A stretch of 64,000 nucleotides of DNA from Eledone cirrhosa (Eukaryota): contig OZ024741.1 of assembly GCA_964016885.1 (NCBI GenBank), positions 239,382,001 to 239,446,000 on the forward strand. Reading direction: 5' to 3'. The position numbers were made by a program, and so were the translations under genes. This document shows, in pieces, positions 7,325 through 62,240 of this stretch; the stretch's first letter is position 1; every line of letters starts with the position of its first letter. The notes under the pieces were generated by a model. The model saw only the letters and a list, made by a program, of their open reading frames with translations, searched no databases and had not been told where the DNA came from.

Positions 7325-7339
7325 TTTGAATTATCTCCC
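7325..7339 (-). promoter_or_regulatory. Conserved upstream motif GGGAGATAATTCAAA (gene A copy)
   Basis: One copy seen upstream of each of the six Pcdh large exons; function inferred. Confidence 0.6.
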
Positions 7340-7404
7340 TTCGACATACCGACAACAGAGAAATTAATTCTTAACGGAAACATTTTAATAACTATAATAT
7401 ATAT

Positions 7405-8640
7405 AATAAAATAATAATTAAATTGTTGTGTACAGTGCTCAGGTGCACTACAACTCATCAAAGGCGAATGTATAGTACATAGAATAGTGTATAAATGTCA
7501 GGAGAGTGAACAGTGTATGAGTCCATGTGTGCATGTGTATGGAGGAGGGATATCGTGTAGTGTTGGCGGATTTCAGGAAGCATGGAGGTTTTAAAGGATG
7601 AAGTGTCCCGGCAGCTAACAACTGATGCAGGTAGTTTGTTCCATGCTTCAGCAACTCTGAACATGAAAAAATGTTTCCGAAAGTCATGGGAGCTTTCTGA
7701 CTTTGTAGGCATGCCCACAGGTGTTAGACACATGGAATTCAAAAAGGTGCTCAGGGTTGTTGTTGGCAAAATGGTTAATAATTTTGTGAGTGTTTACTAA
7801 GTCAGTTGCCAGACGTCGGAGCTTCAATGTATCCATGCCCAGGGAAGTAAGGCGTTCAGAGTATGGTAGATGTCTGATGGAGGGTATTCACTTGGTTGCA
7901 TGTCTCTGAACAGTTTCCAGGAGGTCACTGTTCTGAGCAAGATAGGGGTTCCAGACTGGAGATGCAAATTCTAAGTGTGGCCACACCATAGCTATAAACA
8001 GCTTTAAACAGATAGCTGGAGAGCGGCTGACAATGGTCTTGCTGAGTGATGCCAAGCCACCCTCTGCCTTCTTGACAATTTTAGAGATGTGCTTTATCCA
8101 ATGCAAATCGCTGCTGACAGTAATGCCCAGGTCACATTGACAAGAAGGCTTCTTGATATTAGTGTTGTGGAGGGAGTACGTGGACACTGGGTTTTTCCTC
8201 CCAAAATGCATGGTGGTACACTTGTCCACAGCCAACTTGAGTTGCCAGGCCATGATCCATTGCTGCATTGTGTCCAGGTCTGATTGCAGGAAAAATCTAT
8301 AGTGTTCAGGATCTGTCCTTTTTATCTCAAGGTACAGCTTGATGTCATCTGCATATTTCAGCACTGTGGCATTCTTTAAGTTGGCATCTATGTCGTTCAT
8401 ATATGCAACAAACAAAAGGGGACCAAGAACAGATCCCTGCAGTACACCAGATGACATCTCATAAGGTGAAGAATGCTGTCCTAAAACTGTGACTACCTCT
8501 TTTCGACTGAGAATGAAGGACTTCAACCAGTTAAAAAGATCATCTCTCACACCCATTGCAGAGACTTTTGCCATAAGTTTTTTGTGTGACACAGAATTGA
8601 AAGCTTTAGCAAAGTCAAGGAATCAGTGATCCGGGTGATG
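7405..8640 (-). mobile_element. 5'-truncated CR1-type LINE fragment
   Basis: ORF 7888-8592 with SGVLQGSVLGPLLF and KYADD RT motifs; HFFMFRVAEAWNKLP C-terminus; AT-repeat 3' tail. Confidence 0.88.
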
Positions 8641-9028
8641 TCTTCAATATCTTGTAAATATGGCGTGTATACCACAACTAAGTCTTAAAGCAATAATCGT
8701 AATAATGTTGTGCCATCTTCTGTCATGTATTTTGTAAAACTGGAAAATTGGATACTTGAAATTTTGAAAGTATAAATTCATATTAAATAATAATGATAAA
8801 TTCTAAAACTTTATTGCTTTACACATGTTTCGAGAGTAATATAAGGTTATGCATTTTTCTTATAAATATAAAGGTAATATCAGGAACAATAAAATATCGT
8901 CGTTATTACTTTTCTATGAATATAATAATATGTGGTTGGTATTAGGGAGGGCATCCAGCCGTAGAAAGCAAAAATCAGTTCTGTGTGAGCGAATCATGGT
9001 CCCCCGACCGGATCCCTCACAAAGGGAC

Positions 9029-9843: not shown

Positions 9844-9874
<31 letters not shown>

Positions 9875-13559: not shown

Positions 13560-14250
13560 ATAAATTTTGTAAATACATCAAAGATGACAGCAAATATTTC
13601 CAGAAGTATGTTATATAAAACTACAATTCAACATATATTCCTCTCTCTCACTGTTTCTTACAAAATACTTGATAGCCATGTTGGTAAAGAAGACATTCAA
13701 TGAGAACTAACACAGATCTAATATGGCCACCATTACAATATTATATTTTGATGTTATAATATGGCTATATATGAAGTTATTTTACATGACTGGATAAATA
13801 ATATAGAATAATAAAACTTACATTCATTGTGTAAAGTCCTTTGTTACAAACTGAGTTGGTCCCAATGTTCTGTTGTTAATGGTTGTCTGTGTCACTGCTG
13901 CTATGGTGTGACAATGGCTTCATGTTGATGGAATAGTGTTGGTAGTGAGTCAGTGGGAACCAGCAGTTCCTGTCTTCTGTGTATGTGTGATGTTTACTGA
14001 GTGTGAGTGTGTGTGAGAGAGAGAGGTGGGGGAGGGTGATGCTTACTCCAGCCTCACTCAGACTAGATGTGTTTCCCCTCACAGAGAAGAGGGAGAGAGA
14101 GAGAAGACACAATATCCGCTCCACTCACAGTCAGCCATAATGTCTATATAATACCAACATGTCTGATGTAGAGAGACTGACATAGAAATATTTAGAAGAG
14201 AGAGGTTATATTAACAAAATATGGCTGATGCTGTTAATGTCTATGTAATA
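13560..14250 (-). other. Conserved 3' non-coding block (probable 3' UTR) of gene B
   Basis: Near-identical copies downstream of genes C-G: ~25940-26660, 35330-36010, 47810-48510, 54915-55745, 63345-64000. Confidence 0.7.
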
Positions 14251-16723: not shown

Positions 16724-19078
16724 CTTTGTGGATTTTTGAAGAGATCTGTTCATTGTTGATGTCTTCCAGTCTTCAGGATAATAATGGCTTCTAGACTGAC
16801 TATATCTGTCTGATATCTCTCCTCGATTACCTGACATCACAGATACACTGTTGTTACCTTGATAGATCAACTGTCTCATCTCATTACGACATTGGTATGC
16901 CTGTTTCTCTTCTGTTGTTCTAGCTGAGTTATTTCTTACATTGTTACATCTCACAATACACAATGTTATAGAAACCACAATAGCTATAGATACTATCACA
17001 GCTGCTACTACAATGATAATCAACAATGTTGCATCTATTGTGTTATCAGTTGATACAGGGACAGCTGTGAACATTGGTGATGTCTTGTTACTAACAGTCA
17101 GTGTTAAAGAGACACTAGTTGTTGCTGACAGAACTGGAGTACCACTGTCTTTCACAACAAACTCCAGTTGATATGATCCAGCATCATTTTGGTAAACTGT
17201 GCGAGAGTAAGATAAGACACCAGTGAATGAGTCCAGTTTAAATAATTGTCTCTCATTACCTGAAAGGATTTCATACCTGAGAAAAGCATTCATGTGACTG
17301 TCTATATCAGAGGCTTTCAGAAGTGTGATGTCATTCTTACTTTGTGGATGATAGTGTATATCAAGAGTGAAAGGGTCAACACTAGGAAATGTAAAATATG
17401 GAGCATTATCATTTTTATCTAATACTTCCACTTCAACATTCACTGTGTTATTTAGAGATGGTGTTCCATTGTCTTTGACAAAAACCTCAAAGTCATAGAA
17501 ATCTCTGTGTTCTCTGTCTAAAGACTGGTTTGTTGAAATAAAGCCAGAGTTGATAATCTGGAATGGTAGACGATATTGGTGTTTATTTCTCAGATAATAA
17601 CTTAATTCACCTCCCTTACCAACATCTGGGTCTGTAGCATTGATAAAACCAATAGGGAAATTAGCTTTGTCATTCTCATAGGTAAGGAACTTGAATGTAT
17701 CTTTGGTAAAGTGTGGTTTTACATCATTCACATCTAACACTTGTATTGAGAGATCTTTATCAGTTTTCAGAGAAGGTAATCCTTTATCTTGACAAGAGAC
17801 AGTAAAGTGATAATGTTCCTGTGTCTCTCTGTCTACTGCTTTCTTTAGAATTATTTTATATTCCTTAGATCCCATTGACTGTAGTTTGAATGTATCATGT
17901 TTGATATTACAGCTGACCTCTCCATTGTGTCCAACATCATTGTCAGTGACCATCACATAAGCAATGAAACTACCAACTTTGATATCTTCCAGAATAGTAG
18001 CTGTGTTGTGATTCTCTGTAGAAATATAGTTGACATCAATATTTGGAGGATTGTTGTGTTGGTTGATAACATTTACCATAACAGTTGCTATGGAACTGAG
18101 TGGTGGACTGCCATTATCTCTGGCTTTCACATACAATTTATATGATTGTTTTTTTTCCAGATTTAAAGGTTTTTCTAAGTATAATTTGCCACTACTTTCA
18201 TTTAAATGAAAATAATTTTTGATCTTTTCATCAGTTTTTTGACTAAAATAGAAAGATATTTTACCATTCCTGCCAATATCTAAATCATTGGCAGATAATG
18301 TCACTATTGGAATATTGTTTTTATGTTTATGTTCTATAGACACATTGTAGATACGTTGGGAAAATTTTGGTATATTATCATTTTCATCTTCAACAGATAT
18401 TCTAACATTTAAAATACTTTGTTTTGGTGGAGTTCCTCCATCTTTAGCAATGACCTCAATATTGTAACTGTCTTTCTTTTCCCTATCTAATTTATCTTCT
18501 AAAATAATTCCTAATGTTGATAATCCATCATCTTCTTTCGAAACACTTAATGAAAAATGTTTGGTATCATCTTTCAGTTCATATTTAATTAAACTGTTCT
18601 GATATCCTTTATCTTTATCAATGGCATTAGGAATCGTTTTCTTCATACCATCTCGATCTCCTTCACCAAACATTAGATTGATTTCTTTCTCAGGAAACTC
18701 AGGTTGGTGGTCATTGATGTCTTCTATTATGACTTTAATTTTCAATATCTTCATAAATGTCTTGGATTTGTGAACTGCAACTTTAACTATTTCAAAACAT
18801 TCTTTCTCATAACTACACACAGACTCAGCATCCAATGTCTGAACAGTGTACAGTTTACCTGTTTTTGTCACATTGAACAACTGTTCTCCTTTTTGTTGTA
18901 GTTGACTGAATGTAATTAAATCCTTATTCTTTAAGAAGGAGTTATCTGATGTCTGTAAGTCAGTAGCAATGTCCCCTACATAAGTATAGGGATTTCTCTC
19001 TTCTTTAACATGGTATGTGATATGTTCACTTAGATAACAGTGGAAGAAAGTCAGTAAAATACACAGAAATAACAACAT
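16724..19078 (-). CDS. Pcdh: Protocadherin B, large exon (785 codons)
   Basis: 6 EC + TM ORF; donor AAG|GTAACC; acceptor at 19135. Confidence 0.96.
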
Positions 19079-19159
19079 CTCTACTCTTGATGGTAATACA
19101 ATATCCAGATGAAAGATCGTTAAAAATGTTCAATCTGAAACAAAACAAAATAAAAAATG

Positions 19160-21063: not shown

Positions 21064-21547
21064 TTACTATCCGGTTATTAGAAATAATTTTTTCCTTCTT
21101 AAAAACATTGTATAATACATGATTAAAATGTTTATCATTTGGTATTTAATATGATGTAAAAATTGTCTATATATATATTTTACTATGTCAGAGGAACAAT
21201 AGAATGTTGTTGTTTCAGTATTGGTTTTCACCCATTTAAGCTGGTTGTACAAATTTTAAATATTTTCATTCGGATTTATTAATTAAAACCTTTAATAACT
21301 GTATGGCCAGTCTTAGTAAGACTTTCAGAATAAAAGCAACACCTATTTATGATAAACACTTTGGTGTAAATAGACTAAAACTTCAAGTTAGGGAATATCA
21401 CTGAAGATGAGACAGCAATATTATGAGCATGATGGTAGCTAAAATTTTATATCAGATATAAATCCATTTCTACAGAATATTTAATTAAACAGTACCAAAT
21501 TAAAATTGATTATATGATATGAAAATCGGATTTTGTTTGAAATAGCA

Positions 21548-24315: not shown

Positions 24316-24325
24316 AAACGAAATA

Positions 24326-24340
24326 TTTGAATTATCTCCC
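24326..24340 (-). promoter_or_regulatory. Conserved upstream motif (gene B copy)
   Basis: TTTGAATTATCTCCC on the plus strand. Confidence 0.6.
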
Positions 24341-27040
24341 TTTTGCCATACTAACTACACAAAAGTAACCGTTAACGTAAAAATATATGTAATTATATAT
24401 AATAATAATAATAATGAAATATTGTGTACAGTGCTCAGGTGCACTCAGGTAAAGATGAGGTGAATATCACTACTAAAAGTCCTAAAGCAAGAAAAGTAAT
24501 AACGTTTGTAACATCTGTTGTGTGCCATGTTCTATTGTGTATTTTGTAAATCCATGGAAATGTGGAGACTTGAAATTTTTGAAGTATAAATTCATATTAA
24601 ACAGCAATGATAAATTCAGACATACTCAAAATCAAACAGTATTAAGCATTAGTGATTAAACCATATTAAACAGTAATGATGAATTCATGTATATCTTTTA
24701 AATAGATTAATATTTCCTATGCTTAGCATTTTATATTCAATAAGTTTTTTTCCGATAATTAGGATGTACCATTTTGTCAACACATCTAACTCACCTTAAG
24801 TTATAATATTAACATTGAAATATCCTTGAATAGAAGGAATTAATTAAAGGAGTAATATTCATTACTTCACTTATTTAATTATTTCACACAGTGTACACAG
24901 GAATGTAAGTCAATCCGAATATAACCCAACCTCTATTTTATATCTAAGAAATGGTCAAATATCTGAACCTCATGTGTTGAAGCAGCTAATTAACACATTA
25001 TGTTTAGATGGTGTGGTTTTGAAATTCTCATGAGTGGAGTAAATATCTATGAAGTTTTAATATTTTGATATTTAAAATGTTTTAAGTGTCATGTCAAGCA
25101 TAGTTTTTGTTTCACAACTCCAATTCTTGAATCAAATATTCATAACATTAAATTGTTGCAGAATTTAGCACAATACATTAAATTTAAGGTTTATAACTAA
25201 ATATCATATATTTTGTTTAAATATGAAAATAAAATAAGAATCCACTTAATGTAGGATGTCTTAGAATAAAAAAAAATATTTAGGTAATTTATATTTGTTT
25301 CCTACAGTTTAAAATAAAAATAAAATTATGTAAAATTTAAAACAAATCGCCAATGAATTTGATTATAATTTCTATTAAAACCTACTTGACTTTTTTTGTT
25401 GTTGAGGCTTGTGTAAAATTTTATCCAGATCTATGATGAAACACACATCAGGTGCATTTGATATTACAAATTGTGACAAATTAAGCATTTATGTGTGAAT
25501 ACATAGATGACCAAAATTATTACCTCAATATTTTTCACAAAGTCTTCAGGACAGAGATTACTCAGTTTTTATTGGATAAAGATATTTCAATATGAATGGA
25601 AATTGTTGAAATATCTACTAATTTATAAAAATAAAGAGTAATATGAAAATATATTTCAACATAAAATAATAATCCTTAATAGACTTATAACAAATAAAGA
25701 TTACCATACACTTACAGTGTGTGTGTGTAGGGGGGTGGGGGTGGGGGGGGGGGGGGATGTAACTGCAATACCATAATAAAAATACCAATAGATATTAATT
25801 ATATTATCTATCAACAATATCTTTGAAAACCTCAATTACTATATCAATGATATTCTTGTTCCATATTTAGTTTCTTCGAAAATGATAAAATGTTTTCACA
25901 GTGATTTAGTAAAAATATGTAATAAGTAATGTTAAAATGTAATAAACAAGATAAATATTGTAAATACATCAAAGATGGGAGCAAATATTTCCAGAAGTAT
26001 ATTATATAAAACTACAATTGAACATATATTCCTCTCCCTCACTGTTTCTTACAAAATACTTGATAGCCATGTTGGTAAAGAAGACATTCAATGAGAACTA
26101 ACACAGATGTAATATGGCCACCATTACAATATTATATTTTGATGTTATAATATAGCTATAAATGAGGTTATTATTTTACATGACTAAATAAATAATATGG
26201 AATAAATAAAACTTACATTCATTGTGTAAAATCCTTTGTTATAAACTGTGAGTTGGTCCCAATGTTCTGTTGTTAATGGTTGTCTGTGTCACTGCTGCTA
26301 TGGTGTGACAATGGCTTCATGTTGATGGAATAGTGTTGGTAGTGAGTCAGTGGGAACCAGCAGTTCCTCTCAGTCTTCTGTGTATGTGTGATGTTTACTG
26401 AGTGTGAGTGTGTGTATGGGAGAGAGAGGTCGGGGAGGGTGATGATCACTCCAGCCTCACTCAGACTAGATGTGTTTCCCCTCACAGAGAAGAGGGAGAG
26501 AGAGAGAAGACACAATATCAGCTTCACTAACAGTCAGCCATAATATGTCTATATAATACCAACATGTCTGATGTAGAGAGACTGACATAGAATTACTTTG
26601 AAGAGAGAGGTTATATTAACAAAATATGGCTGATGCTATTAATGTCTATGTAATATAAAATGTATTTAAAATATAAACAATAATAGTTAGTATGTGTTTG
26701 ACCTAATTTTAAACTAACTCTCCCACTCAGGGTATATTTAATAAAATCTACAGATGTTATGTTACCTCGCATCATTATCACAGTTTTGTTCATTTTTACG
26801 TGTTAAATAATTTTCCTCAAATATAAAATTTACAATATAGTGTACTTATTATTTATTTATAATATAATTCAATTTATATTTTCAAGTATATATTGTAAAG
26901 TGTATCTATTATTATTGTAGAAATTTCCCTATTATTATATTTCCCTTAATATTATCCACAAGCTAATATACTTCTGTAGTTTTAATAGTTATGTGAATGT
27001 TGAAGGTGATATTTCTGTTGTGTTCATTTCTCAGTCTGAC

Positions 27041-28839: not shown

Positions 28840-31194
28840 CTTTGTGGATTTTTGGAGAGATCTGTTCATTGTTGATGTCTTCCAGTCTTCAGGATAGTAA
28901 TGACTTCTAGACTGACTATATCTGTCTGATATCTCTCCTCGATTACCTGACATCACAGATACACTGTTGTTACCTTGATAGATTAACTGTCTCATCTCAT
29001 TACGACATTGGTATGCCTGTTTCTCGTCTGCTGTTCTAGCTGAGTTATTTCTCACATTGTTACATCTCACAATACACAATGTTATAGAAACCACAATAGC
29101 TATAGATACTATCACAGCTGCTACTACAATGATAATTAACAATGTTGCATCTATTGTGTTATCAGTTGGTACATGGACAGCTGTGAACATTGGTGATGTC
29201 TTGTTACTAACAGTCAGTGTTAAAGAGACACTAGTTGTTGCTGACAGAACTGGAGTACCACTGTCTTTCACAACAAACTCCAGTTGATATGATCCGGCAT
29301 CATTTTGGTAAACTGTGCGAGAGTAAGATAAGACACCAGTGAATGAGTCCAGTTTAAATAACTGTCTCTCATTACCTGAAAGGATTTCATACCTGAGAAA
29401 AGCATTCATGTGACTGTCTATATCAGAGGCTTTCAGAAGTGTGATGTCATTCTTACTTTGTGGATGATAATGGACATCAAGAGTGAAAGGGTCAACACTA
29501 GGAAATGTAAAATATGGAGCATTATCATTTTTATCTAATACTTCCACTTCAACATTCACTGTGTTATTTAGAGATGGTGTTCCATTGTCTTTGACTAAAA
29601 CCTCAAAGTCATAGAAATCTCTGTGTTCTCTGTCTAAAGATTGGTTTGTTGAAATAAAGCCAGAGTTGATAATCTGGAATGGTAGATGATATTGGTGTTT
29701 ATTTCTCAGATGATAACTTAATTCACCTCCCTTACCAGCATCTGGGTCTGTAGCATTGATAAAACCAATAGGGAAATTAGCTTTGTCATTCTCATAGGTA
29801 AGGAACTTGAATGTATCTTTGGTAAAGTGTGGTTTTACATCATTCACATCTAACACTTGTATTGAGAGATCTTTATCAGTTTTGAGAGGAGGTAATCCTT
29901 TATCTTGACAGGAGACAGTGAAGTGATAATGTTCCTGTGTCTCTCTGTCTACTGCTTTCTTTAGAACTATTTTATATTCTTTAGATCCCATTGACTGTAG
30001 TTTGAATGTATCATGTTTGATATGACAGCTGACCTCTCCATTGTGTCCAACATCATTGTCAGTGACCATCACATAAGCAATGAAACTACCAACTTTGATA
30101 TCTTCCAGAACGGTAGCTGTGTTGTGATTTGGTGTAGAAATAAAGTTGACATCAATATTTGGAGGATTGTTCTGTTGGTTGATAACATTTATCATAACAA
30201 TTGCTAAGGAACTAAGAGGAGGAATTCCATTATCTTTGACCTTCACATACAATTTATATGATTGTTTTTTATCAAGATTTAAAGGCTTTTGTAAGTATAT
30301 TCTCCCAGTAGTTTCATTTAAAAGAAAATAATTTCTTATTTTCATCTCTGTTTTCTGACTAAAATAGAAAGATATTTTGCCATTCCTACCAATATCTAAA
30401 TCATTGGCAGATAATGTCACTACTGGAATATTTTTCTTATGGTCATGTTCCATAGAGACATTGTAGATACTTTGAGAAAATTGTGGTTTGTTATCATTTT
30501 CATCTTCTACAGATATTTTCACATTTAAAATACTTTGTTTTGGTGGAGTTCCTCCATCTTTAGCAATGACTTCAATATTGTAGCTGTCTTTTTTTTCTCT
30601 GTCTAATTTCTTTTCTAAAATAACACCTAATGTTGAAATTCCATCAGCTTCTTTGGAAACACTTAATGAAAAATGTTCATCATCATCTTTCAGTTCATAT
30701 TTAATTAAGCTGTTCTGATATCCTTTATCTTTATCTATGGCATTAGGAATCGTTTTCTTCATACCATCTCGATCTCCTTCCCCAAACATAAGAGTGATGT
30801 CTTTCTCAGGAAACTCAGGTTGGTGGTCATTGATGTCTTCTATTATGATTTTAATTTTTAAAATCTTCATAAATGTCTTGGATTTGTGAACAGCAACTTT
30901 CACTATTTCAAAACATTCTTTCTCATAACTACACACAGACTCAGCATCCAATGTCTGAACAGTGTACAGTTTACCTGTTTTTGTCACATTGAACAATTGT
31001 TCTCCCTTTTGTTGTAGTTGACTAAATGTAATTAAATCCTTATTCTTTAAGAAGGAGCTATCTGATGTCTGTAAGTCAGTAGCAATGTCCCCTACATAAA
31101 TATAGGGATTACTCTCTTCTTTAACATGATATGTGATATGTTCACTTAGATAACAGTTGAAGAAAGTCAGTAAAATACACAGAAATAACAACAT
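28840..31194 (-). CDS. Pcdh: Protocadherin C, large exon (785 codons)
   Basis: 6 EC + TM ORF; donor AAG|GTAAAG; acceptor at 31252. Confidence 0.96.
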
Positions 31195-32525
31195 CTCTGG
31201 TCTTGATGTTAATACAGTATCCTGGAAAAATTACAGCTTCACATATTCAATCTGAAAGACACATAGATTTAGTATATTAATAAGTGTGTTGAGTGCTGTA
31301 AATCATATACTGCACTTTTCAAAATATATGACAGACTCACCCTGATTTTGTACAAAAAGGTAATTTAGGAAAACAATAAACGTATACCTGTGCATATACA
31401 TTTCCTATTCATTGTATACATACATATTATTACAATATTTATATCTGCAGTTAATAGCATGCAGTCAGATTTCGTTAGAAAAGTTTTGGGTATAATTGTG
31501 TGTTATACAATGAAATATACTATTTTCTGTCATGTATTATTTTTCTACAAGACAAAAAATTGTGTAATAACTCAACAAATGTGATATCACAATTACTTAT
31601 GAAGAGCAAATCTATGATATTTAATATGACATTTAAGTAGACTACATATCTTGTATGGAAAAGAGAAATGTTTCATGTTACTGCATTTACATCAATAGCA
31701 GCAAGTTTTACAAAAATTAGGATATTTACATTTTAGTTTATATCACCCTGTAATGTGATCATGCTTGTGCCACAATGAAATGCACTCAGTCAACCCTGTA
31801 AGGTGCTGGTGCCATGACAAAAAGCATGCAGTTCATTCTGTATGGTATTAGTGCTGAGATCATGATAAAAAGTTTCGAGTACATGCTGTAAAATGACTGA
31901 CATTAGGAAGAGCATCCAGCTATAGGAACCAAGCCAACAGCAGAGTATACAAACAGGATGCTGTCACCAGGCCAGCCTTGCCTCAGAACATGACAATTTA
32001 TGTAACCCATACAAGCATGAAAAATAGACATTAAATTCTGATGAAGATGAACATTTTATGGCAGTAGAGTTTATTATAACTTTTGGAGTAAAAGCAGCAC
32101 CTATTTTCAGTTAAACAGTTCTGAAGTAAACTCACCATTAAACTCACCATTATTAAACTCACCTTAGATCAATCACTTTGTAACAACTAAATATGAGAGA
32201 TCAATGTTTGAGTAAGATGGTAGCTGAATCATAGATTTAGATTCATTTTTATCAAATATTTGATTAACCTACAGCATGATATATTTGTATTTGACATGGG
32301 AATTTAAAATAGATTATATCCAATAACTACGTGATTTTCATGGAAAATATCAAGGCAAAAATGATTAAAAGACTCAATCCATAACCCAGTTTAACACTCC
32401 CACATAGCCCTCCGTGAGCCTTTAACGTAGTGCATTCAGTTACAAGTGTTCGGATCAAATACCCCCCCCCCCCCCCCTCACCCATTTCTGACTAAAGAAA
32501 AAGAGAAAAAAATTCATTAGGAAGA

Positions 32526-32540
32526 TTTGAATTATCTCCC
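32526..32540 (-). promoter_or_regulatory. Conserved upstream motif (gene C copy)
   Basis: TTTGAATTATCTCCC in flanks otherwise diverged from A/B/D. Confidence 0.6.
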
Positions 32541-32802: not shown

Positions 32803-32847
<45 letters not shown>

Positions 32848-33029: not shown

Positions 33030-33067
<38 letters not shown>

Positions 33068-33229: not shown

Positions 33230-33261
<32 letters not shown>

Positions 33262-33265
<4 letters not shown>

Positions 33266-40289: not shown

Positions 40290-40437
40290 CATCTCATTTC
40301 TACAGCTGAGTAAACTGGAGCAATGTGAAATAAAGTGTCTTGCTCAAGGAAACAACACATCACCCGGTTTGAGAATTGAACTCACAACCTTTCGATTGCA
40401 AGGCCAATGCTCTAACCACTAAGCCATGTGCCTCCAC
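40290..40437 (-). mobile_element. tRNA-derived SINE 5' part (CORE/V-like central domain)
   Basis: Minus strand A-box TGGCTTAGTGG, B-box GAGTTCAATTC, then TCCTTGAGCAAGACACTT; related piece at ~40940-41195. Confidence 0.7.
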
Positions 40438-41375: not shown

Positions 41376-41526
41376 CTGACATTGCTGGTATTTCTTCATA
41401 CTGTCTACTTGACCTTTCACTCCAGCACTGTCCACTACTTTTACGACTGGTCAATGTATCAGTAGGATAGTTAGAAGATGGTCTGTTGTCTCCATAAGAT
41501 GTCACCTCTATAGGTTGACTGTATTT
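41376..41526 (-). CDS. Pcdh: Protocadherin D, cytoplasmic exon 2
   Basis: 151-nt paralogous exon; CAACAG acceptor. Confidence 0.88.
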
Positions 41527-42848: not shown

Positions 42849-45200
42849 CTTTGTGGATTTCTGAAGAGATCTGTTCATTGTTGATGTCTTCCAGTCTTCA
42901 GGATAGTAATGGCTTCTAGACTGACTATATCTGTCTGATATCTCTCCTCGATTACCTGACATCACAGATACACTGGTGTTACCTTGATAGATCAACTGTC
43001 TCATCTCATTACGACATTGGTATGCCTGTTTCTCTTCTGTTGTTCTAGCTGAGTTATTTCTCACATTGTTACATCTCACAATACACAATGTTATAGAAAC
43101 CACAATAGCTATAGATACTATCACAGCTGCTACTACAATGATAATCAACAATGTTGCATCTATTGTGTTATCAGTTGGTACATGGACAGCTGTGAACATT
43201 GGTGATGTCTTGTTACTAACAGTCAGTGTTAAAGAGACACTAGTTGTTGCTGACAGAACTGGAGTACCACTGTCTTTCACAACAAACTCCAGTTGATATG
43301 ATCCGGCATCATTTTGGTAAACTGTACGAGAGTAAGATAAGACACCAGTAAATGAGTCCAGTTTAAATAATTGTCTCTCATTACCTGAAAGGATTTCATA
43401 CCTGAGAAAAGCATTCATGTGACTATCTATATCAGAGGCTTTCAGAAGTGTGATGTCATTCTTACTTTTTGGATGATAGTGGACATCAAGAGTGAAAGGG
43501 TCAACACTAGGAAATGTAAAATATGGAACATTATCATTTTTATCTAATACTTCCACTTCAACATTTACTGTGTTATTTAGAGATGGTGTTCCATTGTCTT
43601 TGACTAAAACCTCAAAGTCATAGAAATCTCTGTGTTCTCTGTCTAGAGATTGGTTTGTTGAAATAAAGCCAGAGTTGATAATCTGGAATGGTAGACGATA
43701 TTGGTGTTTATTTCTCAGATAATAACTTAATTCACCTCCCTTACCAACATCTGGGTCTGTAGCATTGATAAAACCAATAGGGAAATTAGCTTTGTCATTC
43801 TCATAGGTAAGGAACTTGAATGTATCTTTGGTAAAGTGTGGTTTTACATCATTCACATCTAACACTTGTATTGAGAGATCTTTATCAGTTTTGAGAGGAG
43901 GTAATCCTTTATCTTGACAAGAGACAGTGAAGTGATAATGTTCCTGTGTCTCTCTGTCTACTGCTTTCTTTAGAACTATTTTATATTCCTTAGATCCCAT
44001 TGACTGTAGTTTGAATGTATCATGTTTGATATTACAGCTGACTTCTCCATTATGTCCACCATCATTGTCAGTGACCATCACATAAGCAATGAAACTACCA
44101 ACTTTGATATCTTCCAGAATGGTAGCTGTGTTGTGATTTGGTGTAGAAATAAAGTTGACATCAATATTTGGAGGATTGTTGAGTTGGTTGATAACATTTA
44201 TCATAACAATTGCTATGGAACTAAGAGGAGGAATTCCATTATCTTTGGCCTTCACATACAATTTATATGATTGTTTTTTATCCAGATTTAAAGGATTCTC
44301 TAAATATATTCTCCCACTACTTTCATTTAAATGAAAATAATTTCTCATTTTCACCTCTGTTTTCTGACTAAAATAGAAAGATATTTTACCATTCCTGCCA
44401 ATATCTAAATCATTGGCAGATAATGTCACTACTGGAATATTCTTTTTATGTAAATGTTCTATAGAGACATTGTAGATACTTTTGGAAAATTCTGGTTTAT
44501 TATCATTTTCATCTTTTACAGATATTTTAACATTTAAAATACTTTGCTTTGCTGGAGTTCCTCCATCTTTAGCAATGACTTCAATATTGTAGCTGTCTTT
44601 CTTTTCTCTGTCTAATTTATCTTCTAAAATAATTTCTAATGTTGATATTCCATCTGCTTCTTTGGAAACACTCAATAAAAAATGTCTCTCATTATCCTGT
44701 AATTCATATTTAATTAAACTGTTTTGATATCCCACATCTTTGTCCACAGCATTGGGTATTGATAGTTTTGATCCTCTGCTGTCTCTCTCTGAAAACTGAA
44801 TATTTACTTGTTCAGTTGGAAACTCAGGCTGGTGGTCATTGATGTCTTCTATTATGACTTTAATTTTTAATATCTTCATAAATGTCTTGGATTTGTGAAC
44901 AGCAACTTTAATTATTTCAAAACATTCTTTCTCATAACTACACACAGACTCAGCATCTAATGTCTGAACAGTGTACAGTTTACCTGTTTTTGTCACATTG
45001 AACAATTGTTCTCCCTTTTGTTGTAGTTGACTAAATGTAATTAAATCCTTATTTTTTAAGAAGGAGCTATCTGATGTCTGTAAGTCAGTAGCAATGTCCC
45101 CTACATAGGTATAGGGATTTCTCTCTTCTTTAACATGGTATGTGATATCTTCACTTAGATAACAGTGGAAGAAAGTCAGTAAAATACACAGAAATAACAT
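42849..45200 (-). CDS. Pcdh: Protocadherin D, large exon (784 codons)
   Basis: 6 EC + TM ORF; donor AAG|GTAAAC; acceptor at 45257. Confidence 0.96.
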
Positions 45201-46274
45201 CTCTGCTTCTGATGTTAATGCAGTATCCAGGGAAAGGTAAGCTTCAAAAATTCAATCTGAAACAAACAATTATTACTATATTAATAAAAAATAAATATTG
45301 TTTCCTTAAAAAAATGCTCAATAAAACATCAAAATATTTGTTTCAGCAGTCATGTATTGTGATATTTAATATGATGTAAAAATAATCTTTCTATATTTTA
45401 CTGAGCCACAGGAACAATAGAATATTGTTCTGTTTTAGCACTGATTTACATCCATTTAGTCTGGTTGTACAAGTCTACAAGTCAGTACTGAAGTGGGGCT
45501 ACTGACATCCCAGGTAGGCCGAAGAGGTCTGTATCCCACTTATAAAAGGTCATTATTGAGTGCAGAGGAGAAGTTGACGTGCCTTTTGACAAAAAACAGA
45601 AAGATCCTCCTAACCTCTTGTTCGGAAAGCTTTCTATGGCTGAAAGCCCTACCTAACACCAACCACTTTACAGCATCTACTGGGTGCTTTTATTATGTAG
45701 TTCACCAACACTAGGGAGGATGTCATGTCCTTGAGATAACTAAAGCGTCTTCTCAATCCTTTGTTTGGCAAGCTTTCTATGGCTGGATGCCCTTCCTATC
45801 ATCAACCACTTTACAGCGTGTACTGGGTGCATTTATCATGTAGAACACCAACACAAGAGTGGTTGCTGTATCTTTGCCACAACTCAAGGATCCTCGCAAC
45901 CCTTTTAGGCATGGTTTCTACAAGGTGTCCTTCCTTTCGGCAACCACTCATACGGAGTACACCGGATACATTTAAATATTTACATTCTGGTTTATTAATT
46001 CAAACCTTTAGTAACTATAACCAGTCTTAATATGACTTTCAGATAAAAGCAACATCTATTTATGATAAACACTTTGGAGTAAATGGAGTAAAACTTGTAC
46101 TTAAGGAATATCACTTTAACTACACCTGAAGATGAGACAGCAATATTATGAGCAATACTGTAGCGAAATTATATCAGATATAAATCCATTTCTGCAGAAT
46201 ATATAATTAAACAACACTATATATTATATTTTTATGTGAAAATAAAGTTTTTTTGAATTACATTATATATGATA

Positions 46275-46289
46275 TTTGAATTATCTCCC
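46275..46289 (-). promoter_or_regulatory. Conserved upstream motif (gene D copy)
   Basis: TTTGAATTATCTCCC on the plus strand. Confidence 0.6.
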
Positions 46290-47611: not shown

Positions 47612-48891
47612 CCACAAAACCATAATGAAAATACCAATAAGATATTAATTAAATTTAATTAATATCTTAACAATATTTATGTATAACCTGAATTACTATA
47701 TTTCAATGATATTCTAGTTCAATATTTAGTATGTACTAAGACCCTACAATGTCTAACTGAATAATTCAGTGAAAATATATAATGATGATTTATGTTAAAA
47801 TGTAATAAACAAGATAAATATTGTAAATACATCAAAGATGGCAGCAAATATTTTCAGAAGTATATTATATAAAACTACAATTAAACATATATTCCTCTTT
47901 CTCTATCACTGTTTCTTACAAAATACTTGATAGCCATGTTGGTAAAGAAGACATTCAATGGGAACTAACACACATCTAATATGGCCACCATTACATTATA
48001 TTTTGATGTTATAATATAGCTATATATGAAATTATTATTTTACATGAATGGATGAATAATATGGAATAATAAACTTACTTTCATTGTGTCAAATCCTTTG
48101 TCATAAACTGTGAGTTGGTCCAAAAGTTCTGTTAATGGTTGTCTGTGTCACTGCTGCTATGATGTGACAATGGCTTCATGTTGATGGAATAGTGTTGGTA
48201 GTGAGTCAGTGGGAACCAGCAGTTCCTCTCAGTCTTTGGTGTATGTGTGATGTTTACTGAGTGTGAGTGTGCGTGTGAGAAAGAGAGGTGAGGGAGGGTA
48301 ATGCTTACTCCAGCCTCACTCAGACTAGATGTGTTTCCCCTCACAGAGAAGAGGGAGAGAGAAGACACAATATCAGCTCCACTAACAGTCAGCCATAATA
48401 TGTCTATATAATACTAACATGTCTGATGTAGAGAGACTGGCATAGAAATACTTAGACATTAATAGCATCAGCCATATTTTGTTAATATAACCTCTATTTT
48501 CTATGTAATATAAAATGTATTTAAAATATAAACAATAATAGTTAGTTTAAAATTAGGTCAAACACATACTAACTCTCCCACTCAGGGTATATTTAGGAAA
48601 ATCTACAGATGTTATGTTACCTCACATCATTATCACAGTTTTGTCCATTTTTACATGTTAAATAATTTTCCTCAAATATAAAATTTACAATATATTGTAC
48701 TTATTATTTATTAATATAATTCAATTTATATTTTCAAGTATCAAGTGTAAATTTATCTATTATTATTGTAGAAAATTCCCTATTATTATATTTACCTTAA
48801 TATTATCCACAAGCTAATATACATTTGTAGTTTTAATAGTTATGTGAATGTTGAAGGTGATATTTCTTTTGTGTTAACTTCTCAGTCTGAC

Positions 48892-49921: not shown

Positions 49922-52267
49922 CTTTGTGGATTTCTGAAGAGATCTGTTCATTGTTGATGTCTTCCAGTCTTCAGGATAGTAATGACTTCTAGACTGACTA
50001 TATCTGTCTGATATCTCTCCTCGATTACCTGACATCACAGATACACTGTTGTTACCTTGATAGATCAACTGTCTCATCTCATTACGACATTGGTATGCCT
50101 GTTTCTCTTCTGTTGTTCTAGCTGAGTTATTTCTCACATTGTTACATCTCACAATACACAATGTTATAGAAACCACAATAGCAATAGATACTATCACAGC
50201 TGCTACTACAATGATAATCAACAATGTTGCATCTATTGTGTTATCAGTTGGTACATGGACAGCTGTGAACATTGGTGATGTCTTGTTACTAACAGTCAGT
50301 GTTAAAGAGACACTAGTTGTTGCTGACAGAACTGGAGTACCACTGTCTTTCACAACAAACTCCAGTTGATATGATCCAGCATCATTTTGATAAACTGTGC
50401 GAGAGTAAGATAAGACACCAGTGAATGAGTCCAGTTTAAATAATTGTCTCTCATTACCTGAAAGGATTTCATACCTGAGAAAAGCATTCATGTGACTGTC
50501 TATATCAGAGGCTTTCAGAAGTGTGATGTCATTCTTACTTTGTGGATGATAGTGGACATCAAGAGTGAAAGGGTCAACACTAGGAAATGTAAAATATGGA
50601 GCATTATCATTTTTATCTAATACTTCCACTTCAACATTCACTGTGTTATTTAGAGATGGTGTTCCATTGTCTTTGATAAAAACCTCAAAGTCATAGAAAT
50701 CTCTGTGTTCTCTGTCTAAAGACTGGTTTGTTGAAATAAAGCCAGAGTTGATAATCTGGAATGGTAGACGATATTGGTGTTTATTTCTCAGATAATAACT
50801 TAATTCACCTCCCTTACCAACATCTGGGTCTGTAGCATTGATAAAACCAATAGGGAAATTAGCTTTGTCATTCTCATAGGTAAGGAACTTGAATGTATCT
50901 TTAGTAAAGTGTGGTTTTACATCATTCACATCTAACACTTGTATTGATAGATCTTTATCAGTTTTGAGAGGAGGTAGTCCTTTATCTTGACAGGAGACAG
51001 TAAAGTGATAATGTTCCTGTGTCTCTCTGTCTACTGCTTTCTTTAGAACTATTTTATATTCCTTAGATCCCATTGACTGTAGTTTGAATGTATCATGTTT
51101 GATATCACAGCTGACCTCTCCATTGTCTCCAACATCATTGTCAGTGACCATCACATAAGCAATGAAACTACCAACTTTGATATCTTCCAGAATGGTAGCT
51201 GTGTTGTGATTCTCTGTAGAAATATAGTTGACATCAATATTTGGAGGATTGTTCTGTTCACTGATAACATTTATCTGAATTATTGCAAGGGAACTGAGAG
51301 GAGAACTGCCATCATCTTTGGCTTCCACATATAATTTAAATTTCTGATTTTTTCCAATTTCTAATGATTTTTTCAAGTATAATTTTCCAGTAATTTCATT
51401 CAAACGAAAATAATTTCTTGACTTTACATCAGTTTTCTGACTGAAATAGAAATATATTTTACCATTCCTACCAATATCTAAATCATTGGCAGATAATGTC
51501 ACTATTGGAATATTCTTTTTATGGTCATGTTCCATAGAAACATTATAGATAGTCTGGGTAAATTGTGGTGTGTTATCATTTTCATCCTCTACTGATATTT
51601 TAACATTTAAAATACTTTGTTTTGGTGGAGTTCCTGCATCTTTAGCAATGACTTCAATGTTGTAACTGTCTTTTTTTTCTCTGTCTAATTTCTTTTCTAA
51701 AATGATACCTAATGTTGATATTTCATCAGCTAATTTTGATTGAGATAAGGAAAAATGTTCATTTTTTAATTCATATTTAATTAAGCTGTTTTGGTATCCC
51801 ACATCTTTGTCTACAGCATTAGGTATGGCCTTCTTCATACCTCTACCATCTCCTTCCCTAAAATTTAGAGTGATGTCTTTCTGAGGAAACTCAGGTTGGT
51901 GGTCATTGATGTCTTCTATTATGACTTTAATTTTTAATATCTTCATAAATGTCTTGGATTTGTGAACAGCAACTTTAATTATTTCAAAACATTCTTTCTC
52001 ATAACTACACACAGACTCAGCATCCAATGTCTGAACAGTGTACAGTTTACCTGTTTTTGTCACATTGAACAATTGTTCTCCCTTTTGTTGTAGTTGACTA
52101 AATGTAATTAAATCCTTATTTTTTAAGAAGGAGCTATCTGATGTCTGTAAGTCAGTAGCAATGTCCCCTACATAGGTATAGGGATTTCTCTCTTCTTTAA
52201 CATGGTATGTGATATCTTCACTTAGATAACAGTGGAAGAAAGTCAGTAAAATACACAGAAATAACAT
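49922..52267 (-). CDS. Pcdh: Protocadherin E, large exon (782 codons, 2-aa deletion in EC2)
   Basis: 6 EC + TM ORF; donor AAG|GTAAAG; acceptor at 52324. Confidence 0.96.
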
Positions 52268-52788
52268 CTCTGCTTCTGATGTTAATGCAGTATCCAGGGA
52301 AAGGTAAGCTTCAAAAATTCAATCTGAAACAAACAATTATTACTATATTAATAAAAAATAAATATTGTTTCCTTAAAAAAATGCTCAATAAAACATCAAA
52401 ATATTTGTTTCAGCAGTCATGTATTGTGATATTTAATATGATGTAAAAATAATCTTTCTATATTTTACTGAGCCACAGGAACAATAGAATATTGTTCTGT
52501 TTTAGCACTGATTTACATCCATTTAGTCTGGTTGTACAAGTCTACAAGTCAGTACTGAAGTGGGGCTACTGACATCCCAGGTAGGCCGAAGAGGTCTGTA
52601 TCCCACTTATAAAAGGTCATTATTGAGTGCAGAGGAGAAGTTGGCGTGCCTTTTGACACAAACAGAAAGATCCTCGTAACCTCTTGTTTGGAAAGCTTTC
52701 TATGGCTGAAAGTCCTTCCTAACACCAACCACTTTACAGCATGTACTGAGTGCTTTTATTATGTAGTTTACCAACGCTAGGGAGGATG

Positions 52789-52971
52789 TCATGTCCTTGA
52801 GATAGCGATGTCCCCTACATAGGTATAGGGGCTCATCTCTTCTTTAACATGGTATGTGATATGTTCACTTAGATAACAGTGGAATAAAGTCTGTAAAATA
52901 CACAGAAATAACATCTCCGGTCTTGATGTTAATACAGTATCCTGGAGAAATTACAGCTTCAAATATTTAAT
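52789..52971 (-). pseudogene. Stranded Pcdh 5' fragment (acceptor, 5' UTR, ATG, 37 Pcdh codons, then ISRT*)
   Basis: MLFLCILQTLFHCYLSEHITYHVKEEMSPYTYVGDIA from ATG 52914; intact TTTCAG acceptor at 52972; TGA at 52789-52791. Confidence 0.9.
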
Positions 52972-53255: not shown

Positions 53256-53270
53256 TTTGAGTTATCTCTC
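53256..53270 (-). promoter_or_regulatory. Conserved upstream motif, variant (gene E copy)
   Basis: TTTGAGTTATCTCTC, 13/15 match to the other five. Confidence 0.5.
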
Positions 53271-55237: not shown

Positions 55238-56116
55238 AATATTATATTTTGATGTTATAATATGGCGATATATGAAGTTATTTTACGTGACTGGATAAAT
55301 AATATAGAATAATAAAACTTACATTCATTGTGTAAAATCCTTTGTTATAAACTGTGAGTTCGTCCCAATGTTCTGTTGTTAATGGTTGTCTGTGTCACTG
55401 CTGCTATGGTGTGACAATGGCTTCATGTTGATGGAATAGTGTTGGTAGTGAGTCAGTGGGAACCAGCAGTTCCTCTCAGTCTTCTGTGTATGTGTGATGT
55501 TTACTGAGTGTGAGTGTATGAGAGAGAGAGGTGGGGGAGGGTGATGCTTACTCCAGCCTCACTCAGATTAGATGTGTTTCCCCTCACAGAGAAAAGGGAG
55601 AGAGAGAGAGAAGATGCAATATCAGCTCCACTAACAGTCAGCCATAATATGTCTATATAATACCAACATGTCTGATGTAGAGAGACTGACATAGAAATAC
55701 TTAGAAGAGAGAGGTTATATTAACAAAATGTGGCTGATGTTGTTCATGTGTTTAATATAAAATGTAAATAAAATATTGACAATAATACTTAGTGTGTGTC
55801 TGACCTAATTATAAACTAACTATTCTATTCAGGATATATTTTTTCTAATTAACAGATATTGTAACCCATGTAAAATATATTTTCTCAGTAAAATTTCAAA
55901 TATCGTGTATATATAATTTATTAGCAGGGAGAAATGTATGTTAGTTGATAATGATGATAATTCTGTTCATATTTTCAAATTAAAATTGTATTTCCTAAAG
56001 ATATTTTATTAATGTAGACATTCCCATAATATTATCAACTAATATATTATGGTAGTTTAAAATATTGTGTGAATGTTGAAGGTGATATTTCTGTTGTGTT
56101 AACTTCTCAGTCTGAC

Positions 56117-58321: not shown

Positions 58322-60673
58322 CTTTGTAGATTTCTGAAGAGATCTGTTCATTGTTGATGTCTTCCAGTCTTCAGGATAGTAATGGCTTCTAGACTGACTA
58401 TATCTGTCTGATATCTCTCCTCGATTACCTGACATCACAGATACACTGTTGTTACCTTGATAGATCAACTGTCTCATCTCATTACGACATTGGTATGCCT
58501 GTTTCTCTTCTGTTGTTCTAGCTGAGTTATTTCTCACATTGTTACATCTCACAATACACAATGTTATAGAAACCACAATAGCAATAGATACTATCACAGC
58601 TGCTACTACAATGATAATCAACAATGTTGCATCTATTGTGTTATCAGTTGGTACATGGACAGCTGTGAACATTGGTGATGTCTTGTTACTAACAGTCAGT
58701 GTTAAAGAGACACTAGTTGTTGCTGACAGAACTGGAGTACCACTGTCTTTCACAACAAACTCCAGTTGATATGATCCGGCATCATTTTGGTAAACTGTGC
58801 GAGAGTAAGATAAGACACCAGTGAATGAGTCCAGTTTAAATAACTGTCTCTCATTACCTGAAACGATTTCATACCTGAGAAAAGCATTCATGTGACTGTC
58901 TATATCAGAGGCTTTCAGAAGTGTGATGTCATTCTTACTTTGTGGATGATAGTGGACATCAAGAGTGAAAGGGTCAACACTAGGAAATGTAAAATATGGA
59001 GTATTATCATTTTTATCTAATACTTCCACTTCAACATTCACTGTGTTATTTAGAGATGGTGTTCCATTGTCTTTGACAAAAACCTCAAAGTCATAGAAAT
59101 CTCTGTGTTCTCTGTCTAAAGACTGGTTTGTTGAAATAAAGCCAGAGTTGATAATCTGGAATGGTAGACGATATTGGTGTTTATTTCTCAGATAATAACT
59201 TAATTCACCTCCCTTACCAACATCTGGGTCTGTAGCATTGATAAAACCAATAGGGAAATTAGCTTTGTCATTCTCATAGGTAAGGAACTTGAATGTATCT
59301 TTGGTAAAGTGTGGTTTTACATCATTCACATCTAAGACTTGTATTGAGAGATCTTTATCAGTTTTCAGAGAAGGTAATCCTTTATCTTGACAAGAGACAG
59401 TAAAGTGATAATGTTCCCGTGTCTCTCTGTCTACTGCTTTCTTTAGAACTATTTTATATTCCTTAGATCCCATTGACTGTAGTTTGAATGTATCATGTTT
59501 GATATTACAGCTGACTTCTCCATTGTGTCCAACATCATTGTCAGTGACCATCACATAAGCAATGAAACTACCAACTTTGATATCTTCCAGAATGGTAGCT
59601 GTGTTATGATTCTCTGTAGAAATGTAGTTGACATCAATATTTGGAGGATTGTTGTGTTGGTTGATAACATTTACCAGAACAGTTGCTATGGCACTGAGTG
59701 GTGGACTGCCATTATCTCTGGCTTCAATATATAATTTTAAAAATTCTTCTTTATCAATTTCTGAAGATTTAGCTAAATATAACTTTCCTGTATTTTCATC
59801 TAAATTAAAGTATCTTTTCATTTTCTCTGCAGTTTTCGTAGCAAAATAGAAAGATATTTTACCATTCCTGCCAATATCTAAATCATTGGCAGATAATGTC
59901 ACGACTGGAATATTCTTTTTATGCTTATGTTCTATAGAGACATTGTAGATACTTTGAGAAAACTGTGGTTTATTATCATTTTCATCTTCTACAGATATTT
60001 TAACATTCAAAATACTTTGTTTTGGTGGAGTTCCTCCATCTTTAGCAATAATTTCAATATTGTAACTGTCTTTCTTTTCTCTGTCTAATTTATCTTCTAA
60101 AATAATTTCTAACGTTGATATTCCACCTGCTTGTTTGGAAACACTTAATGAAAATTGTCCTTCATTATCAAGAAGCTCATATTTAATTAGACTGTTCTCA
60201 TATCCCACATCTTTATCAACCGCATTGGGTATTGATCTCTTGGTGTTTTTACTATCAGTTTCAGAAAACTGAATATTGACTTGTTCTGTTGGAAACTCAG
60301 GTTGGTGGTCATTGATGTCTTCTATTATGACTTTAATTTTCAATATCTTCATAAATGTCTTGGATTTGTGAACAGCAACTTTCACTATTTCAAAACATTC
60401 TTTCTCATAACTACACACAGACTCAGCATCCAATGTCTGAACAGTGTACAGTTTACCTGTTTTTGTCACATTAAACAATTGTTCTCCCTTTTGTTGTAGT
60501 TGACTAAATGTAATTAAATCCTTATTCTTTAAGAAGGAGCTATCTGATGTCTGTAAGTCAGTAGCAATGTCCCCTACATAAGTATAGGGATTACTCTCTT
60601 CTTTAACATGGTATGTGATATGTTCACTTAGATAACAGTGGAAGAAAGTCAGCAAAATACACAGAAATAACAT
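58322..60673 (-). CDS. Pcdh: Protocadherin F, large exon (784 codons)
   Basis: 6 EC + TM ORF; donor AAG|GTAAAG; acceptor at 60722. Confidence 0.96.
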
Positions 60674-62225
60674 CTCTGCTCTTGATGTTATCCTCAGAAA
60701 TTAGAATTCCAAATATTCCAACTGAAAGAAAAAGATTTAATATATTAATGTGAAGTGAATAGAGTGTTATAAACATGGAAACAACATTATACCGTAGCTC
60801 CTCAAATTGTGTGTGGTCTGTATAATACATCACAAAAAAGAGCAAAGCTCATATTCTTAATATGACATAGAAATAGACCACATTATATATATATATATAT
60901 ACACAAATCATCGTTTAAGATCTATTTCCCTTCCAGCATGAGTTAGATTAGCTGCCCCATAATGAGACAAGCCAGGTTGGATGATTGTCTTGCTCATACA
61001 GAATTAAATTTGGCTAGATTTCTACAGCTGGATACCCTTCCTAACGCCAATCACACAGTAACAATGGGATAATATACAATTTTATTTTGCATAGTTTTAC
61101 ATTGATTTTACAAAATTTAGGTATTAACATTTTGAATTATGGAAACAAATCATTCACCATTTTATTGTCTGTCATTTTTTATATTTGCAGTAGATATGGA
61201 GTATAAAAAGGTGCAGTGCACTCAAAGTTTATGGAAGCCATGGAGTGGGAAGACGCAGGAAGAATTAGGATGAGGTGATAAAAGCTGACGTTGCTCAATT
61301 GCACCTATCAAAAGTGATGACACAGGATCGAGATCTCTAGCGTTTGCAGTCATATAGAAGACCCACGTTCCCATGAGCCCCGACTGAAACATACATCTAG
61401 TATGCACCACCTCCACTCTTTCTATTTACCTCCCACGTCCTAACATTCCACCCCTCAAACACACCCAAATATCCAACTCCCTAATCCCCACACAACTCTC
61501 CCACCAAATACACCAGACCACACTGTAAAGTTATTATGATGGCAACATGACAGACAGCACCCAGCCCATCCGAAACTGTAAAGTTGTCATGTAGGTGTCA
61601 GGACAAAAAGCACGAAGTCCACACTGTAAAGTGGTCATGTAGGCATCACAACAAAAAGCAACCAGTACTCACTGTAAATGAGATTGGAGTTAAGAAGGGA
61701 AACTAGCTGTAGAAATCAAGCCAAAATCAGTTCTGTGTGAGCAAGAAATGGTCACCTGACCTGGCATTTCTCACAAGACAATTCATCTAACCTATGCTAG
61801 CATGGAAAAATAGACGTTAAATGGTAATGATGATGGAGTATATTTCCAGATAAGCAGTCTATAATAAACACACTAACATGGGTAAACCTAAGATATATTA
61901 CATTATTCGACAAATAAATATAAGATAGCTGTATTGTGAGCCTGAGCATAGCTACATCACATCGATGATAGATTCAACGTCTATTATACATATTTTGATA
62001 TAGGAATTTGAAATTGGCTGTATCCAATAAATGGGATTTCAATGGAACATACTGAGGCAGAAAATTATTGATTTCTAACTTAGACACAAGGCTAGCAAAT
62101 TCGGAGGAGGCCAAAGTTGATTAAATTAACCTAATACTTAACTGGCATTTTATTTTATTAACCCAGGAAGGATCAACGGTAAAGTTAACCTCAGAAATGA
62201 TTCATTTGGAAATAAATAGGAATAG

Positions 62226-62240
62226 TTTGAATTATCTCCC
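62226..62240 (-). promoter_or_regulatory. Conserved upstream motif (gene F copy)
   Basis: TTTGAATTATCTCCC in diverged flanks. Confidence 0.6.

Follow-up and report, generated by a model that had tools for sequence, protein, structure and literature searches.

In insect Dscam1, where mutually exclusive exons belong to a single pre-mRNA, selector sequences pair with a docking site that follows a shared constitutive exon, and the pairing is kept by compensatory changes. The clustered protocadherins of vertebrates carry a conserved sequence element (CSE), a promoter element of about 22 bp that precedes each variable exon, is present in all 52 genes and is bound by CTCF (PMC3333863, in the part available). 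Cephalopods have 150-300 protocadherins, for which the available parts of PMC9068888 and PMC6339937 describe only whole-gene duplication: the coleoid sub-arrays are made up of whole-gene duplicates, that is head-to-tail multi-exon genes with their own tail exons, on one chromosome. A further precedent, taken from excerpts of PMC13335116 and PMC2132874, is offered by the Drosophila proteins GAGA factor and PROD and by mouse Ikaros, which bind pericentromeric repeats as well as sites in genes. Here, we analyse a window of 64,000 nucleotides from the octopod Eledone cirrhosa (contig OZ024741.1, C2:239.382-239.446 Mb of a 3.0-Gb genome), which holds six large protocadherin open reading frames (ORFs), all on the minus strand (genes A-F), and focus on a 15-bp motif, which an initial annotation had placed upstream of every protocadherin and proposed as an element for gene choice.

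The motif is real and conserved, yet it is intronic and occurs genome-wide, and it is not a protocadherin-specific switch. In two sub-arrays nearly all genes carry the word in intron 1, and the word also forms the core of a satellite, which argues for a likely landing site of a chromosome protein and not for a switch that picks genes; the surprise is this link between an intronic word and a multi-megabase satellite inside the protocadherin cluster. Judged from these sequence patterns, the word is probably a binding site, common to introns and satellite, for an abundant sequence-specific chromatin protein. A protein that recognises double-stranded DNA is suggested because the word is kept amid decaying flanks, occurs in both orientations, leaves its central bases free, clusters with itself and is found in unrelated repeats.

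Six copies of the motif, one per unit and in a common orientation, had been placed on the plus strand of the window, opposite the minus-strand genes. All were located there, five of them exact and the sixth (53256) with two mismatches; given on the strand of the genes, they are as follows.

7325..7339, minus strand: motif GGGAGATAATTCAAA in intron 1 of gene A, 600 nt 5' of the exon-2 acceptor
24326..24340, minus strand: motif in intron 1 of gene B; a 2.8-kb insertion begins about 5 nt downstream and spares the motif
32526..32540, minus strand: motif in intron 1 of gene C
46275..46289, minus strand: motif in intron 1 of gene D
53256..53270, minus strand: motif variant GAGAGATAACTCAAA in intron 1 of gene E, a member of a 14-gene flank family
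62226..62240, minus strand: motif in intron 1 of gene F

From the motif start to the acceptor of the large exon (exon 2) the distance is 600 nt in gene A, 5206 in B, 1289 in C, 1033 in D, 947 in E and 1519 in F. The spacing given earlier is thus borne out for A, C, D, E and F (600-1519 nt) and also for B, where about 0.5 kb is left after removal of the inserted blocks, as judged by alignment with the introns of A and D; the copy of gene E is in addition 0.3 kb from a truncated additional exon-2 start at 52971. Insertions about 5 nt (gene B) and about 110 nt (gene A) away have left the motif intact. The 2.8-kb insertion in gene B (21542-24322) carries two plus-strand ORFs of 366 and 401 amino acids that, going by sequence motifs, we take to resemble Penelope-like elements; a Pfam search of them was without match, and nothing was returned by Pfam for three of the four repeat ORFs searched. 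Across the window genes, the motif sits 1.4-6.5 kb 3' of the exon-1 donor and 0.6-5.2 kb 5' of the exon-2 acceptor. Because each gene has its own first exon (see below), these copies lie in intron 1, and the phrase 'upstream of every protocadherin' needs correction on both counts, since 'every' is true for the window only and other sub-arrays are mostly without the motif.

The same pattern extends over the sub-array to which the window belongs (sub-array 1 or S1), where GRGAGRTAAYTCMA, with up to two mismatches, occurs in intron 1 of 31 of the 33 genes and on the opposite strand in 5/33, against a shuffled expectation of 2.7 genes on average and 6 at most (40 shuffles). An alignment-free ranking of words in distal intron 1 places GAGATAACTC (one mismatch allowed) first among 53,841 10-mers, with 27/33 genes compared to 2.4 expected. 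By their flanks, the 31 sites group into 11 families. Comparison between families gives an identity of 87% for the core and of 32-33% for the ungapped flanks, a contrast that agrees with the earlier claim of conservation above the flanks and is inflated by anchoring on the motif. With gaps allowed, homology of the flanks is still detected between many of the families, so that most sites are homologous; what the flank families have in common is only a word of 12-14 nt, and neither satellite spacers nor repeat flanks are common to them. All sub-array-1 copies are on the transcribed strand.

Three other sub-arrays on C2 were compared: S2 (238.0-238.2 Mb), S3 (240.0-240.2 Mb) and S4 (252.35-252.52 Mb). 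In S4, 13 Mb away, the top-ranked words are again the word and its reverse complement, arranged as a forward copy, a spacer of about 20 nt and an inverted copy, and located 3' of a first-exon donor, hence also in an intron. The inverted copy is present in 16/17 genes and is 97% identical, compared to 38-39% in its flanks, whereas the forward copies vary at their central bases and their partner shows no matching change.

Outside the protocadherins, the exact 15-mer has 41 genomic copies (six in the array and 35 elsewhere) versus one for its backwards-read control, and the related words RGGGAGATAAYTM, AAGGGNNATAAYTC and AAGGGARATAAYTC are found 7,083, 24,066 and 4,214 times versus 416, 528 and 82 for their respective controls. 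This enrichment of 17-50-fold spans satellite, unrelated repeats and unique DNA, and with thousands of copies elsewhere a motif specific to protocadherins is no longer tenable. The genome-wide consensus is roughly RGGG-NN-RTAAYT, with variable central bases (about 41 CC, 13 AC, 12 AA and 12 AG, counted by eye among the first 100 matches listed). The AGATAA within the motif, initially read as a GATA box, does not form its core, being absent from 6/31 copies in which GGG/GAG and RTAAYT stay; the invariant WGATAR of GATA sites is not kept, and a central AG is seen in only about 12 of the first 100 genome matches listed. The first 100 AAGGGARATAAYTC matches span 80 Mb of C1 and precede the first listed satellite there (231 Mb), so the dispersed excess is not satellite. 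No flanks are shared among 22 dispersed sites, and of 30 further sites (four also in the 22-site sample), 18 are unmatched within the sample and 12 form small groups with shared flanks. Inward-facing pairs of the word occur at 18 loci (8 in S4 and 10 that are not protocadherins) and outward-facing pairs at nine, with none for the controls in either case. An abundant repeat carries AAGGGCCGTAACTC (AAGGG-CC/AC-GTAACT) at many loci, beside a B-box-like stretch; we label it short interspersed nuclear element (SINE)-like from our own reading of its sequence, an Rfam search having given no match for it, and the CC class of the word appears to stem largely from this repeat. A single dispersed repeat family, or the end of a miniature inverted-repeat transposable element, was rejected as the source of the word, given the unrelated flanks and pairs that face both ways with varied spacing. 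Two single loci may be mentioned: a 58-60-bp tandem repeat at C14:38.407 Mb with the word once per unit, and an inverted pair at C7:26328664 that resembles the S4 pairs and has their spacing.

Direct pairs of the word number 277,707 genome-wide and derive from tandem units of 25-28 bp, composed of a constant core and two unlike spacers, in which the core columns are 91-100% constant (1,965 units). This satellite is present in 18 of 20 samples from C2:245.8-251.06 Mb, that is over more than 5 Mb, with a flip of strand between 248.0 and 248.6 Mb, and has protocadherin exons on either side (241.74 and 251.30 Mb); one of its edges is about 6.4 Mb from the window, the other 1.3 Mb from S4. Further arrays are found at C1:251.19 to about 252.2 Mb (about 1 Mb) and on C4 near 140.09 Mb (one 4-kb sample), and none of eight chromosome ends sampled contains the satellite. 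The arrays on C1, C2 and C4 lie mid-chromosome and beside other satellites, and the C2 block has an internal TTAGGG tract (242.2-243.5 Mb) and further satellites as its neighbours. We infer that the C2 satellite block is the centromere region. The repeat is a candidate for the centromeric satellite of an octopod and lies within the protocadherin cluster. More broadly, about 9 Mb of repeats (C2:242.2-251.2 Mb) split the protocadherin super-cluster, and this larger block is a candidate for a centromere or an old chromosome fusion point. A second satellite is seen at C2:244-245 Mb, and an ACCAARC repeat occurs in the C2 block as well as beside the C4 array.

Several observations weigh against a common chromatin-protein site. 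The satellite core ends in TAATTT and the intronic copies in TAAYTC/A, homogenisation of the satellite could by itself be enough to keep its core constant, and the centromeric assignment draws only on array size, neighbouring satellites and mid-chromosome position. In 14 of the 31 sub-array genes the second G is an A, and this 14-gene variant, RGAGAGATAAYTM, is not enriched genome-wide (1,681 copies versus 5,284 for a control that is probably inflated by AG repeats). Paralogues are related by duplication and conversion, so that the gene counts are not independent, and conservation of the intronic word is judged among paralogues of one genome; the metagenome contigs searched contained no cephalopod protocadherin locus. 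S3 shows no common site among its 22 genes, S2 has two strict and about six degenerate sites that lie 250-350 nt before the coding start, and a non-repeat copy is present in three of 20 single genes compared to two for control words. A scan of the whole cluster, as initially suggested, thus upholds one copy per gene in sub-array 1 (31/33) and not in S3 or most single genes. Finally, both the binding and the function of the word are predictions from sequence.

If the chromatin-protein site is nevertheless accepted, an abundant protein would bind the word on double-stranded DNA. Members of the C2H2 zinc-finger family might be considered as the binder, a guess prompted by the expansion of this family on the protocadherin chromosome of coleoids (PMC9068888, in the part available), and the intronic sites may set the chromatin state or nuclear position of genes that lie beside the satellite block. 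The same word is found at the same place in every gene of a sub-array, so its effect would be the same for each gene, and alone it could not pick one. A bolder extension, which we regard as improbable, is that the protein coating the satellite also binds the intron-1 sites and that, with the super-cluster straddling a centromeric satellite, tethering to or shielding from heterochromatin would lead to variegated silencing, which leaves each neuron a protocadherin set of its own; if true, neuronal identity codes would arise by a route independent of vertebrate CTCF looping and of insect splicing. Even without a role in gene choice, a word of this kind points to an unrecognised chromosomal DNA-binding protein, for which it provides a concrete bait of 13 nt, and two natural contrasts are at hand: sub-arrays with and without the word, and the 14-gene variant.

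One alternative is a functionless relic: a satellite monomer or repeat fragment that sat in an ancestral intron 1 and was copied by duplication and patchy gene conversion. The abundance of the word in repeats and satellite, the position of the genes 1.3-6.5 Mb from the satellite array and the many protocadherins without the word are all consistent with such a passenger, and the 14-gene variant is like the repeat's look-alike on both sides and not like the enriched word. A passenger does not readily account for flank families that share just the 12-14-nt word and nothing of the satellite spacers or repeat flanks, for a word that ranks top independently in two sub-arrays with a different arrangement in each, or for its survival next to the insertions in genes A and B, and we consider it unlikely.

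The two remaining alternatives depend on the anatomy of the genes, which was examined over C2:239.282-239.676 Mb (42 large exons). Here the octopod protocadherins are whole-gene duplicates, and neither first exon nor tail exons are shared between them. The closest named relatives of the window proteins are protocadherins of Octopus and Argonauta, and a protein search scored 150 of 279 candidate large exons, most of them at C2:238.0-241.7 and 251.3-253.3 Mb. With protein tails of Octopus and Argonauta as queries, 43 exon-3 and 42 exon-4 matches were obtained for the 42 large exons, and both exons were found after every large exon, which rules out shared constant exons. When the intergenic stretches of the sub-array shorter than 4.2 kb (25 of 32) were aligned, a near-invariant block became apparent behind each stop codon. 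It carries a GAAT/GTAAGT donor, and this conserved exon-1 GT donor is present in 40/42 units; in S2, S3 and S4 a GT donor is likewise conserved, located 3.8-4.9 kb 5' of the coding start in one representative gene of each. A contig of run X9, which comes from another organism, is RNA by guess and has only 26 letters on the short side of the join, connects the donor at 35590 to the start of the gene C large exon (35591 to 31222), and contigs of runs X24, X9 and X1 join the large exon of gene D to exon 3 (41529). The donors and the X9 join together rule out a distant shared first exon. Run contigs were placed on 30800-46900 at 85% likeness, so paralogues contribute, and as assembled contigs they could hide read-through joins between near-identical genes. 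Zero RNA-run depth just inside intron 1 (35423, 35439) is no more than a weak hint. The depth over the motif bin is confounded by repeats. The first exons below end at the conserved GT donor, and their 5' ends are inferred from an initiator-like TCAGT.

13822..14000, minus strand: first exon of gene A; 3' end at the conserved GT donor, 5' end inferred
26217..26401, minus strand: first exon of gene B; 5' end inferred
35590..35774, minus strand: first exon of gene C; 5' end inferred, joined to the large exon by the X9 contig
48079..48260, minus strand: first exon of gene D; 5' end inferred
55323..55507, minus strand: first exon of gene E; 5' end inferred
63606..63789, minus strand: first exon of gene F; 5' end inferred
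4332..6739, minus strand: exon 2 of gene A (signal peptide, cadherin repeats, membrane span); tail exons near 2970-2815 and 388-272
16724..19134, minus strand: exon 2 of gene B; tail exons, one starting near 15307, the other 14698-14576
28840..31251, minus strand: exon 2 of gene C; tail exons near 27526-27371 and 27166-27044
42849..45256, minus strand: exon 2 of gene D; exon 3 at 41529, last exon near 36571-36452
49922..52323, minus strand: exon 2 of gene E; tail exons near 49395-49240 and 49017-48895
58322..60721, minus strand: exon 2 of gene F; tail exons near 57256-57101 and 56236-56120
52805..52971, minus strand: truncated additional exon-2 start in intron 1 of gene E, with its own acceptor; lower bound approximate

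The truncated exon-2 start of gene E is joined to a D-like intron end, and the gene looks like a chimera from unequal crossing over. Just outside the window, units 22/25 and 24/26 (C2:239.45-239.49 Mb) are near-identical pairs around the motif and point to a recent two-gene duplication. In most units only about 0.7-1.1 kb separate the stop codon from the exon-1 donor of the following gene (e.g. 36449-35590, a stretch over which run contigs show depth at listed places), and since 3' untranslated region (UTR) and next promoter thus abut or overlap, read-through or transcriptional interference is possible. Exon 1 has two ATGs. The last one, part of an ATGAAT at the donor, does not share the frame of the distal acceptor; in genes with a further acceptor, 27 nt 5' of the main ATG (e.g. 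gene C, 35590/31221), splicing to that site would bring it into frame. Several units have a conserved GAGRTAATCC in intron 2, 160-530 nt 3' of the donor of the large exon (e.g. 28679); this look-alike is distinct from the motif in that it lacks the GGG, and was set aside.

An RNA element in intron 1, be it a selector, a site for a splicing protein or, for the inverted pair of S4, a hairpin, appears improbable. As a selector, the word would pair with a conserved stretch about 120 nt after the exon-1 donor and either bridge the intron or let a read-through transcript choose a downstream large exon. The location of every sub-array-1 copy on the transcribed strand would suit this, as would the distance of only about 0.7-1.1 kb from gene end to next first exon in most units and the 12-13-bp stem that the S4 pair can form, and the GGGAGATAATTCA type of the word can form a duplex of 15-16 pairs (about -13.6 kcal/mol) with intron positions +119 to +141 in nine of the 32 genes having that stretch. 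Equal energy is, however, reached in 3-16 of 100 shuffles for the six well-pairing genes and in 27-78 of 100 for the other three, and the partner at +119 to +141 is unchanged when the motif changes. In S4 it is the reverse copy that is invariant, changes of the forward copy being uncompensated. A local GAG/YTC hairpin was rejected: its probability is below 0.15 in 28/33 genes and reaches 0.49-0.81 (best pairs) in just five. The selector that the initial annotation had imagined, with a docking site near a distant first exon, does not hold up in view of the first exon that 40/42 units have of their own, the lack of a common reverse-complement copy in sub-array 1 and the lack of compensatory change among paralogues. 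Pairing of the motif with the large exon, as an editing partner, was likewise rejected, 10 of 13 genes being no better than the best of eight shuffles and three slightly better.

The proposal that started this analysis, a dedicated protocadherin gene-choice element that would be the counterpart of the CTCF-bound CSE and let a distant enhancer pick one gene, we find the most doubtful of the three alternatives. It is favoured by the single copy with fixed place and orientation in 31/33 genes and by the position of the word in seven S2 genes, about 310 nt 5' of the exon-1 donor. A second CTCF site of vertebrate clustered protocadherins is exonic and follows the promoter, so a position outside the promoter is not fatal to the proposal. 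Against it stand the intronic position in S1 and S4, the absence from S3 and most single genes, the thousands of copies elsewhere and the lack of any CTCF-like match within 40 nt of the motif in the 33 genes (CTCF consensus, two mismatches allowed); the available parts of PMC9068888 and PMC6339937 do not demonstrate a stochastic choice among the protocadherins of cephalopods. Functions as a 3' UTR or promoter element can be dismissed for a motif that lies beyond the exon-1 donor of the next gene, as can a TATA box, splice acceptor or pseudo-donor, for each of which the suggestive flanks are confined to one flank family. What stands of the earlier proposal is a short element that is conserved above its flanks and most likely acts as DNA; a CSE-like choice element and a selector with a distant docking site do not.

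In comparison with the described systems, the window is an array of the coleoid whole-gene-duplication type, to which the word and satellite are an addition in so far as the available parts of PMC9068888 and PMC6339937 mention neither an intronic element nor a satellite block inside the cluster; no such element is mentioned in what is available of PMC9023564, PMC13218726, PMC9476566, PMC9635835 and PMC6339937 either. Literature searches for the word, for cephalopod protocadherin regulation and for octopus satellites, with supplements and most subscription papers outside their scope, found no description; those for the word itself brought up titles on other subjects only. The word resembles the vertebrate CSE as a short conserved element present once per protocadherin unit in a single orientation, and fails as its analogue in position, sequence, universality and the sharing of constant exons: the CSE is a promoter element, whereas the octopod word is located 3' of the exon-1 donor and is intronic in S4 too; the CSE is present in all genes, whereas the word has no common site in S3 and is found in 3/20 single genes; and the octopod genes, unlike those of vertebrate clusters, do not share constant exons. 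With Dscam1 it has in common that a conserved intronic word lies upstream of each repeated exon, and it differs in that there is no single common docking site and that each large exon belongs to its own complete gene. The closest likeness is to the sites of GAGA factor, PROD and Ikaros. The octopod word is a different one, and its binding protein and the centromeric identity of the satellite are putative; as in those systems, a single short word forms the repeated core of a large satellite block and is also enriched at dispersed sites and in genes.

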